From NCBI RefSeq assembly GCF_046105845.1, contig NZ_CP151004.1: 64,000 bases of DNA. One strand, 5' to 3'. Every line of letters starts with the position of its first letter. Positions within the stretch are counted from its first letter, which is position 1. A program made the position numbers and the translations under genes. This DNA comes from Escherichia coli (GTDB taxonomy: Bacteria > Pseudomonadota > Gammaproteobacteria > Enterobacterales > Enterobacteriaceae). A model generated the notes under the pieces. It searched no databases. It saw only the letters and a list, made by a program, of their open reading frames with translations, and was not told the DNA's origin. Below are positions 17,780-22,690 of this stretch, in pieces.

Positions 17780-20203
17780 TTAAACCTTTTCGATCTGGAC
17801 AAGATTGCTGTGCGACGGGTTTCCCTTTGCCAGCGGTGAAGGGCGGTGAGAGGTCAGAATATTGATACTGCCGCCGTGATCGACCCGGTCACCAAACATA
17901 TCCGCTTTAAGCCACGCACCTTGCCCGATGGCGGTAACGCCAGGCAGAATACGCGGAGTCACTTTTGCGGCAATCAGCATTTCTCCATTATTGTTAAATA
18001 CCCGCACGGTATCGCCATGACGGATACCGCGTGCCTGAGCATCAATAGGGTTGATCCACACCTCTTGTGGGCAGGCCTGCTGTAACACATCAATATTGCC
18101 GTAGCTGGAGTGGGTACGCGCTTTGTAGTGGAAGCCCGTTAACTGCAGTGGATAGGTTTTCCGCAGGGGATCGTCCCAGCCATCAAAACCTGGGGTATAC
18201 GCAGGAAGGGGATGAATAATTTCATCTTTTTTCAATTCCCAGGTATCCGCAATCGTCGCCAGTCGTTCAGAATAAATTTCGATTTTCCCCGAAGGTGTTT
18301 TCAACGGGTTTGCCTGTGGATCTTCACGGAATGCGCGGAAAGCGACGTAGTGTTCTTCAGGGCATTTTTTCTTAAAGATCCCGGTCGTTTTCATCTCCTC
18401 GTAGTCGGGCATCTCAGGGTTACGTTCCTTCGTTTTCGCATGGAGATATTTGATCCATTCATGCTGACTGCGGCCTTCAGTAAAGGTTTGATAAACGTCT
18501 GGTCCTAAGCGTTTGGCGACTTCACTCAGCATCCAGTAGATGGGTTTACGTTCAAATTTTGCTGAGGTTGCGGGTTGGGCGAGGATCACATAGCCCATAT
18601 TCCCGGCAGATTCGTGAGAGATAAGGTCTTCTTGCTCTGTTGGCATCAGGTCGGGCAACAGGATATCGCAATACTTAGCCGAGGCAGTCATGAAGTGGTC
18701 AATGCCAACAATCATCTCGCACTTGCTGTCATCCTGAAGCACCTCATGGGTGTGATTGATGTCGCCATGTTGATTGATCAATGTGTTACTGGCGTAGCAC
18801 CATAAAAACTTGATGGGGACATCCAGTTTTTCTTTTCCACGAACACCATCACGGGTCGCGGTCATTTCCGTGCCATGGTCGATGGCATCTGTCCATGTAA
18901 AGACGGAAATCTGCGTTTTAACAGGATTCTCGAGCATCGGGAACCATTCTACCCCCAGATCCCAGCTACCTTCGCGTACACCTGAGTTGCCGCCGTTTAT
19001 GCCGACGTTACCGGTGAGAACGGAAAGCATGGCAATAGCGCGGGACGTTTGCTCGCCGTTGGAGTGTCGTTGTGGCCCCCAACCCTGACAAATATAGGCA
19101 GGTTTTGCTGAACCGATCTCTCGTGCCAACTGGATAATTTTTTCTGCCGGGATGCTGGTGATTTTTGCTGCCCATTCTGGCGTTTTAGCTATGCCGTCAG
19201 GCCCTTCGCCCAGAATATAGGCTTTATAATGCGCGTTACGTGGAGCGTTGGCGGGCAGCGTTTTTTCATCGTAACCAACACAATATTTGTCGAGAAATGG
19301 CTGATCGACCATGTTTTCAGTAATCAGTACCCAGGCAATCGCACAGGCCAGTGCGCCATCGGTGCCAGGGCGAATGGGCAGCCATTCATCTTCACGTCCG
19401 GCAGCTGTGTCGTTATAACGTGGATCGATGACGATCATGCGTGCATTTGAACGTTCGCGGGCTTGCTCGACGTAGTAAGTGACACCACCGCCGCTCATCC
19501 GCGTTTCTGCCGGGTTATTTCCGAACATAACGACCAGCTTCGTATTGGCGATATCATCCGGGCTGTTGCCATCATTGGCACCGAACATATAACTCATTGC
19601 GGCACTGATCTGTGCGGTACTGTAGCTGCCATAGCGACTGAGAAAACCACCGCAAGAGTTCATCAGACGGTACGGGACGTTTGAGTTGGTGATGTTTCCG
19701 CCATCCACGCCTGTTCCATAGAGAACATGTACAGCCTCATTGCCGTAATCTTTTAGGATCCGCCGAAGATTATCACTGATGGTATCCAGGGCTTCGTCCC
19801 AACTTATCCGTTCAAATTTACCTTCACCGCGCTTGCCGACGCGCTTCATGGGATATTTCAACCTATCAGGATGATTCATCCGTCGACGGATAGAGCGCCC
19901 GCGTAAACACGCTCGAACCTGATGATTACCGTAGACGTCGTCTCCTGTCGTATCAGACTCAACCCAGTACACGGTGTCATCTTTCACATGCAAACGTAAC
20001 AGACAGCGGCTCCCGCAGTTAACGGTGCAGGAACTCCAGACCGCTTTCTCTTCTACCGGTGTCTCTGCCGCTCGGACCATTTGGGAAAATGGCAGAGTGA
20101 AAGCACTGCTTGCCAGCGCGAGACTGCCAAGTGCGGAGGTTTTCATCAGACTTCTACGGCTGATTTCAGCCTTCATGAGCGCCTCTGTGGTATGGATTTT
20201 CAT
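17780..20203 (-). CDS. ynfF: Tat-exported molybdopterin oxidoreductase catalytic subunit (DmsA paralogue)
   Basis: 807 aa from the second Met; twin-arginine motif SRRSLMKT, N-terminal Cys cluster CTVNCGSRC, molybdopterin-binding domains; highly similar to the adjacent ynfE product. Confidence 0.92.
   Translation of the reverse strand: [807 protein letters not shown]

Positions 20204-22690: not shown

Follow-up and report, generated by a model that had tools for sequence, protein, structure and literature searches.

Ancient tandem paralogues in the ynfEFGH-dmsD operon of Escherichia coli: divergence of ynfE and ynfF and their rare in-register hybrid genes

Introduction

YnfE and YnfF of Escherichia coli have been described as paralogous selenate reductase isoenzymes which depend on the chaperone DmsD, and a strain lacking both genes (delta-ynfEF) was reported to lose selenate reduction (PMC5203670, PMC12724226, PMC12096835). 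The view of ynfEFGH-dmsD as a selenate/tellurate reductase is credited to Lubitz and Weiner 2003, Guymer et al. 2009 and Fujita et al. 2021, as these are cited in PMC5203670 and PMC12096835. A related enzyme is DmsA of DmsABC (E. coli b0894), which has its domain architecture, a twin-arginine leader, the conserved cysteines and the DmsD chaperone in common with YnfE and YnfF, and whose partner subunits are paralogous to those of the Ynf system (DmsB to YnfG, DmsC to YnfH); DmsA differs from YnfE and YnfF in being encoded at a separate locus and in the substrate assigned to it. The present work concerns the tandem genes ynfE and ynfF within a stretch of 64,000 nucleotides (nt) from the E. coli contig NZ_CP151004.1 (RefSeq assembly GCF_046105845.1), the whole of which is referred to as the window, and of which 15.6-22.7 kb on the minus strand was identified as the ynfEFGH-dmsD operon. 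As compared to the operon of E. coli K-12 (also written ynfEFGHI), the window possesses the same genes in the same order and on the same strand, with identical lengths, domains and flanking genes, and shows only allelic differences.

A first-pass annotation of the window had taken ynfE and ynfF for near-identical paralogues, i.e., for a 2.4-kb tandem duplication which was expected to be a potential substrate for homologous recombination or assembly collapse. The comparisons reported here lead to a different view, according to which the locus is almost certainly an ordinary ynfEFGH-dmsD operon, with ynfE and ynfF being ancient, dmsA-related tandem paralogues whose synonymous sites are saturated, which are stably kept as two genes, which pose no collapse hazard and which undergo only rare in-register fusion deletions. 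As a feature, the pair is ordinary and already known.

Results

Divergence of the two genes

The operon starts with ynfE (20264-22690, minus strand), whose product has 808 amino acids (aa) and which was identified by the listing of open reading frames (ORFs), the RefSeq annotation of the collinear locus and the Pfam and NCBIfam models. The same lines of evidence, with RefSeq setting the start, identified its tandem paralogue ynfF (17780-20203, minus strand; 807 aa). When read from its first ATG, which lies in frame and one codon upstream of the RefSeq start (20203), the ynfF ORF spans 17780-20206 and comprises 808 aa. Both genes are of full length and follow each other head-to-tail and in register, their starts being 2,484 nt apart. 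The first-pass annotation was thus right about the identities of ynfE and ynfF, on which RefSeq, Pfam and NCBIfam agree, about their being two adjacent 807-808-aa genes in tandem on the minus strand, and about both copies being full length.

The claimed near-identity did not withstand comparison. YnfE and YnfF are 71% identical as proteins (565/799), and the codon-aligned DNA of the two genes is 69.3% identical, with 78.6%, 83.1% and 46.2% identity at codon positions 1, 2 and 3, respectively. The best 300-nt window between them does not exceed 73.5% identity, and a repeat finder reported the tandem repeat at 71-77% identity, all of it short of the ~90% or more that would mark a hazard of recombination or collapse. 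A pairwise nucleotide alignment had been proposed by the first-pass annotation itself as the way of checking its claim, low identity being named as the outcome that would make recombination or collapse unlikely, and low identity is what the alignment gave.

The longest run of identical DNA between ynfE and ynfF was found to be 20 nt and to lie near nt 2140-2160, with 48 runs reaching at least 8 nt, and comparison of the DNA of both genes identified no exact shared tract of 21 nt or more. In simulations at the same position-specific identities, the longest run averaged 17.7 ± 3.2 nt and came to at least 20 nt in 26% of cases, hence the observed run is about what chance gives at such divergence. 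RecA-dependent exchange is known to require a minimal processing segment of roughly 23-27 bp. As no tract of identity between the two genes reaches this length or that of assembler k-mers, classical RecA-dependent recombination is not supported, and assembly collapse is not realistic either, as a longest run of 20 nt and an identity of 69% are far below any overlap threshold. Nei-Gojobori estimates gave a proportion of synonymous differences (pS) of 0.717, corresponding to a saturated synonymous divergence (dS) of ~2.3, and a nonsynonymous divergence (dN) of 0.215, values which place both genes under purifying selection. Moreover, saturation at synonymous sites implies that the pair has been kept as two distinct genes and constitutes a very poor substrate for homologous recombination.

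The long identical blocks quoted in the first-pass annotation are exact, as the long block reads with [I/M]NHPDRL[N/K] within it and the cysteine cluster as C[S/T]VNCGSRC. Several such blocks, each consisting of 14-26 identical residues, are shared by the two proteins. The DNA beneath them is 77-88% identical (86% for the VNCGSRC block), with third positions being identical at roughly 35-65% and with many synonymous differences. Identical blocks encoded by diverged DNA point to conserved protein cores rather than to traces left by gene conversion or by recent duplication; the blocks would then represent cofactor-binding and core segments that are maintained by purifying selection.

Age of the duplication and stability of the pair

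A Salmonella enterica contig was found to carry ynfE (812 aa) and ynfF (811 aa) between ynfD and ynfG, i.e., at the same syntenic position. Between E. coli and Salmonella, the YnfE orthologues are 87.7% and the YnfF orthologues 92.3% identical, whereas all comparisons of YnfE with YnfF gave 71%, the value which was also published for Salmonella (PMC5203670). YnfE or YnfF versus DmsA yielded 66-68% (E. coli and Salmonella), with 67% for either Ynf protein of the window, and orthologues named YnfE were identified at 84-87% identity in Enterobacter, Klebsiella, Lelliottia, Kluyvera, Kosakonia, Buttiauxella and others. Given that orthologues are closer to each other than paralogues and that Salmonella possesses the same pair, the duplication is older than the split between Escherichia and Salmonella and, to judge from the sequences, the three-way paralogy of DmsA, YnfE and YnfF is old as well.

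Stability of the pair was assessed in a set of 5,426 complete E. coli genomes. A 7-kb query around ynfE and ynfF matched 5,424 of these, the best match being 99.3% identical, and the DNA of nearly every E. coli genome is 95-99% identical to the ynfEF locus of the window. The junction of ynfE with ynfF was detected in 5,288 genomes, with coverage of at least 80% in 5,286 of them, and each of these genomes has essentially a single copy of it. Together with the DNA identity of 69% and the longest run of 20 nt, this speaks against the risk of assembly collapse that had been proposed. The allele of the window is an uncommon one, as an identity of at least 99% was seen in just 14 of 5,323 matching records.

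Two further readings of the pair have to be weighed against these data. The first is a recent tandem duplication of 2.4 kb with near-identical copies, which would be liable to unequal crossing-over via RecA and to assembly collapse; it would fit with the in-register tandem arrangement and its 2,484-nt period, with the long identical amino-acid blocks and with the rare E::F hybrid genes which are found in public assemblies and are described below. Yet a recent duplication is not expected to show 69% DNA identity, a saturated dS and a longest shared run of 20 nt, to recur in Salmonella with orthologues closer than paralogues, or to leave 5,286 of 5,426 complete genomes with an intact junction; furthermore, the crossovers of the hybrids sit in tracts of 2-11 nt and not in long identity tracts. 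Such a duplication is therefore regarded as extremely improbable. Ongoing gene conversion, i.e., concerted evolution as in tufA/tufB, was considered as the cause for the blocks remaining alike, and both the existence of several blocks of 14-26 identical residues and the adjacency of the genes, which favours conversion, are in line with it. However, the blocks differ at many synonymous sites, their DNA identity being no more than 77-88%, no window of raised identity exists, the longest run is as expected by chance, and YnfE and YnfF of E. coli and Salmonella group by gene; hence this explanation is very improbable, too. Evidence contradicting the reading of ynfE and ynfF as ancient paralogues was not found within the window.

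In-register hybrid genes

Among the E. coli proteins found by a search with YnfE, there were some of exactly 808 aa with an identity of ~87% to YnfE and of ~83% to YnfF, and a second protein search that used one such hybrid as query revealed further ones. The in-register hybrid proteins identified comprise eight from E. coli, eleven from Salmonella (804-812 aa) and two from another enterobacterium, one of the latter representing 23 member sequences. As the protein database was clustered at 90% identity, only crossovers between ~aa 279 and 529 form clusters of their own, and the hybrids visible are thus a subset. Ten hybrid loci were fetched, in each of which a single hybrid gene between ynfD and ynfG replaces the pair. 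In eight of these ten cases, an NCBI assembly and an independently built Logan assembly encode one and the same protein, and for five of the eight both contigs were returned as loci. Sequencing runs that bear hybrids include SRR28760592, SRR8095399, ERR1619196, SRR27605917, SRR19363596, SRR13004996, SRR10211629 and SRR1849365.

Each of the ten mapped hybrids shows one clean switch from ynfE-like to ynfF-like sequence over ~730-750 diagnostic DNA sites, located in a tract of 2-11 nt that is common to both parents; in one example, 414/425 diagnostic sites are ynfE-like on the left and 312/315 are ynfF-like on the right. The switches fall in local patches of high similarity or in exact runs of 8-11 nt, e.g., AACGGCGA, AAACTGGATGT and GACCTGATG. 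Two of the E. coli hybrids possess neighbouring switches, but their host strains differ by 0.9% over 9.4 kb, which identifies them as separate events. Among the 5,426 complete genomes, no hybrid was found for the two junction types tested, the best matches reaching 84.0% and 86.8% identity as opposed to the ~99% expected of a true hybrid. Here, the top-ranked identity was used, as counting by coverage of the junction query is confounded by megablast extending into the paralogous half at ~84-87% identity. All hybrids derive from short-read draft assemblies, and the literature searched contained no published natural ynfE::ynfF chimera.

It may be argued that the hybrids are artefacts of assembly or chimera formation and that the pair never recombines, as they are confined to short-read drafts, each stems from one or two samples only, and the complete genomes yielded none for the two junction classes tested. 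This idea is difficult to reconcile with two independently built assemblies (NCBI and Logan) encoding the same protein for eight of the ten mapped hybrids, and with contigs which run from ynfD through the hybrid to ynfG without a second copy. Furthermore, a de Bruijn assembler needs reads spanning the junction in order to join two genes over tracts of at most 11 nt, and the presence of one clean switch per hybrid among ~730-750 diagnostic sites likewise speaks against a chimera. An artefactual origin is thus unlikely, and we infer that the hybrids are rare but real homeologous or microhomology-guided deletions. The proposal that the first-pass annotation made, namely that the pair is a substrate for recombination, consequently fails in the classical sense, since no tract of 23-27 bp exists, but holds weakly, in that rare in-register hybrids occur in draft assemblies of E. 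coli and Salmonella.

A more far-reaching idea is that ynfE-ynfF recurrently yields in-register chimeras by deletions guided by 2-11 nt of homology, that such events in E. coli, in Salmonella and in another enterobacterium were independent of each other, and that the intact frames persist and possibly encode working enzymes. This is suggested tentatively, as it is considered possible yet doubtful; if true, it would amount to natural domain shuffling between selenate reductase isoenzymes.

As to the alleles involved, four of the E. coli hybrids (P0035, P0043, P0121 and P0123) are built from essentially the allele type of the window, P0043 agreeing with the YnfE and YnfF residues of the window at 808/808 positions. 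For Salmonella hybrids, three independent Logan contigs (L018, L020 and L022) end 9 nt past the hybrid stop codon, at the start of ynfG, and this graph break may originate from a repeat common to another locus, perhaps dmsB.

Out-of-register fusions and other variants

Next to the in-register hybrids, public assemblies contain many different out-of-register, in-frame ynfE-ynfF fusion ORFs of 743-1,206 aa, namely the proteins P0002-P0018, P0124, P0125, P0127, P0139 and P0140 from E. coli and the Salmonella-like P0021; P0001 is an internal ynfE duplication. One of these fusions was found on 95 contigs and another one on 33, including a contig of 5.07 Mb. Nine distinct out-of-register junctions were mapped, eight of which possess 0-3 nt of microhomology and one 12 nt (ATCGACCATGGC). 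Judged by this scant microhomology, a homology-driven origin was ruled out and the fusions were assigned to illegitimate deletions. In-register events are far over-represented in comparison with random in-frame junctions, which suggests that the overall similarity of the two genes guides the in-register deletions.

Complete genomes that were sampled for structural variation revealed further alterations of the locus. In sequence type 131 (ST131), i.e., in JJ1886 and several others sampled, ynfF is a pseudogene that has lost 274 and 580 nt in two internal deletions, which lack junction microhomology and correspond to 17862-18135 and 18910-19489 of the window (L002 1578-3070), and ynfE is intact. 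Expression of ynfF was measured in the ST131 strain EC958 (PMC12096835). In E. coli GPEC1035, an element of ~8.7 kb (L023 40054-48802) resides within ynfE at a position equivalent to 21280-21290 of the window (ynfE nt 1401-1411). Bordered by an 11-nt direct repeat, CATCTGGAACT, it codes for a KilA-N protein, several hypothetical proteins and an integrase that IS100 interrupts. The left junction of the element was identified in 155 of the 5,426 complete genomes (~3%), the window being without it, and ynfE appears to serve as attachment site for a small integrative element. In E. coli MB07152 (L004 5001-6100), IS1B bounds a deletion that extends up to ydfJ and took out the whole of ynfE together with most of ynfF. 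None of the variants sampled from complete genomes is thus a product of exchange between ynfE and ynfF; instead, they are the ST131 internal deletions, the integrase/IS100 insertion and the IS1-bounded deletion.

Three E. coli hybrids have their crossovers clustered at ynfE nt 1371-1395, only 6-30 nt from the attachment (att) core CATCTGGAACT, and an origin of these crossovers from the integrase was considered. It was ruled out, as the hybrids with clustered crossovers carry ynfF-type sequence at the att core, which ynfF matches at 6/11 positions, and as the cluster falls on a patch in which the local similarity of ynfE and ynfF is among the highest (28/32 positions).

Features of the proteins and of the operon

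YnfE and YnfF each contain PF04879 (Fe4S4), PF00384 (molybdopterin oxidoreductase) and PF01568 (molybdopterin guanine dinucleotide (MGD)-binding), all of them above the gathering score, and both belong to the DmsA/YnfE/YnfF subfamily TIGR02166, with scores of 1398 for YnfE and 1286.5 for YnfF against a cut-off of 777.7. The YnfE model NF041885 (cut-off 1675) accepts the ynfE product (1795.5) and rejects that of ynfF (1481.9), whereas the YnfF model NF041884 (cut-off 1650) accepts the ynfF product (1775.2) and rejects that of ynfE (1479), meaning that the two genes are cleanly told apart by the curated models of NCBI. With scores of 1342 and 1320, YnfE and YnfF remain below the cut-off of the NCBIfam DmsA model (1600).

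In the translation of ynfE, a twin-arginine motif, S11-R12-R13-T-L-V-K17 (SRRTLVK), is encoded at 22640-22660 (minus strand), and translation and alignment place the corresponding motif of YnfF, SRRSLMK, at 20141-20161 (minus strand). The residues S11, R12, R13, L15 and K17 are invariant in YnfE, YnfF and DmsA of E. coli and Salmonella. As both motifs agree with the pattern S/T-R-R-x-F/L-x-K, both proteins are predicted to be exported by twin-arginine translocation (Tat), in agreement with the Tat dependence that the first-pass annotation had put forward. The N-terminal [4Fe-4S] (FS0) motif of YnfE, defined by PF04879, consists of the cysteine cluster C56-x3-C60-x3-C64 (22499-22525, minus strand) and the fourth cysteine C96, all four being invariant in YnfE, YnfF and DmsA of E. 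coli and Salmonella; alignment and Pfam locate the YnfF cluster CTVNCGSRC to 20003-20029 (minus strand).

The spacer between ynfE and ynfF (20204-20263, minus strand) was found by inspection of the sequence to contain a purine-rich AAGTGAG directly upstream of the ynfF start. Downstream of ynfF, likewise on the minus strand, follow ynfG (17152-17769), which encodes a four-cluster ferredoxin-type electron-transfer subunit and DmsB paralogue (Pfam Fer4_11 and related families), ynfH (16296-17150), which encodes the DmsC-family membrane anchor, i.e., the quinol-oxidising subunit (PF04976, E = 1.4e-127), and dmsD (15639-16253), which encodes the chaperone that proofreads the signal peptides of DmsA, YnfE and YnfF for Tat export (PF02613; role according to PMC5203670). 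The order E-F-G-H-dmsD is thus realized on one strand from 22690 to 15639, with gaps of 57-60 nt (E-F), 10 nt (F-G), 1 nt (G-H) and 42 nt (H-dmsD). RefSeq annotation of the best-matching genome places ynfD, ynfC and speG upstream of the operon and clcB and bioD downstream of it.

Pattern matching identified an FNR-like inverted repeat, TTGATATGGATTAA (22790-22803, minus strand), which has one mismatch to TTGAT-N4-ATCAA and is situated ~100 nt upstream from where ynfE starts. The pattern is common in the window (56 matches versus 41 expected), and the repeat is a candidate for the anaerobic activation site of the operon promoter, an assignment inferred from the pattern only.

With regard to the wider window, the closest complete genome, TUM1886 (L001 1-9700), possesses a phage-satellite-like island beside a truncated autoinducer-2 transporter gene. 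The products encoded on the island are an integrase, a protein resembling Icd, a RepA helicase, a small terminase, capsid proteins and head-decoration proteins. Collinearity with TUM1886 begins only at 6709 of the window, which contains an ORF of 344 aa at 5811-6845. At position 41328, a 451-nt indel distinguishes it from TUM1886, the extra sequence being located at L001 44329-44780.

Discussion

Taking the described function of the system into account, YnfE and YnfF would be alternative Tat-exported catalytic subunits, each possessing a molybdenum-bis(molybdopterin guanine dinucleotide) cofactor (Mo-bisMGD) and a [4Fe-4S] cluster, a role for which the literature is the guide. Either subunit may work with the shared YnfG ferredoxin and the quinol-oxidising anchor YnfH, with DmsD proofreading the signal peptides, and together they would serve the periplasmic reduction of selenate and tellurate under anaerobiosis, the role and the regulation being those suggested by published work. 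In-register deletions that fuse the two genes at shared patches of 2-11 nt do take place, albeit at very low frequency, their probable mechanism being taken from the literature.

A single tension attaches to this reading, namely the existence of hybrids despite a DNA identity of 69%, hence a plain statement of no recombination would be too strong. The contribution of YnfF to activity is debated; it was reported to be minor in Salmonella (PMC5203670), and the ST131 strains possess ynfF as a pseudogene.

For the window itself, the region is correctly assembled with both genes intact, and descriptions of the paralogy date back to 2003; owing to the saturated synonymous divergence, no check of copy number is needed. 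More generally, identity of the DNA does not follow from blocks of identical amino acids that the eye picks out, as in the present case such blocks hid saturated synonymous divergence. The rare E::F chimeras are a small curiosity on the reach of homeologous recombination in nature, and natural chimeras of this kind could help to map what sets YnfE apart from YnfF.

Among the known systems, the Salmonella pair STM1499/STM1498 resembles that of the window in being tandem and syntenic, in the 71% identity of YnfE and YnfF and in the occurrence of in-register E::F hybrids. Outside the bacteria, unequal crossing-over between the human tandem paralogues CYP11B1 and CYP11B2 yields chimeric genes (PMC8750845), and the ynfE::ynfF hybrids likewise are in register, with one gene replacing two, as is expected of the product when unequal exchange leads to deletion. 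However, CYP11B1/CYP11B2 and tufA/tufB are ~95-99% identical and recombine via long tracts of identity, whereas ynfE and ynfF are 69% identical and their hybrids switch within tracts of 2-11 nt. This combination characterizes the ynfE::ynfF events as homeologous or microhomology-guided and as far rarer than those of the textbook pairs.

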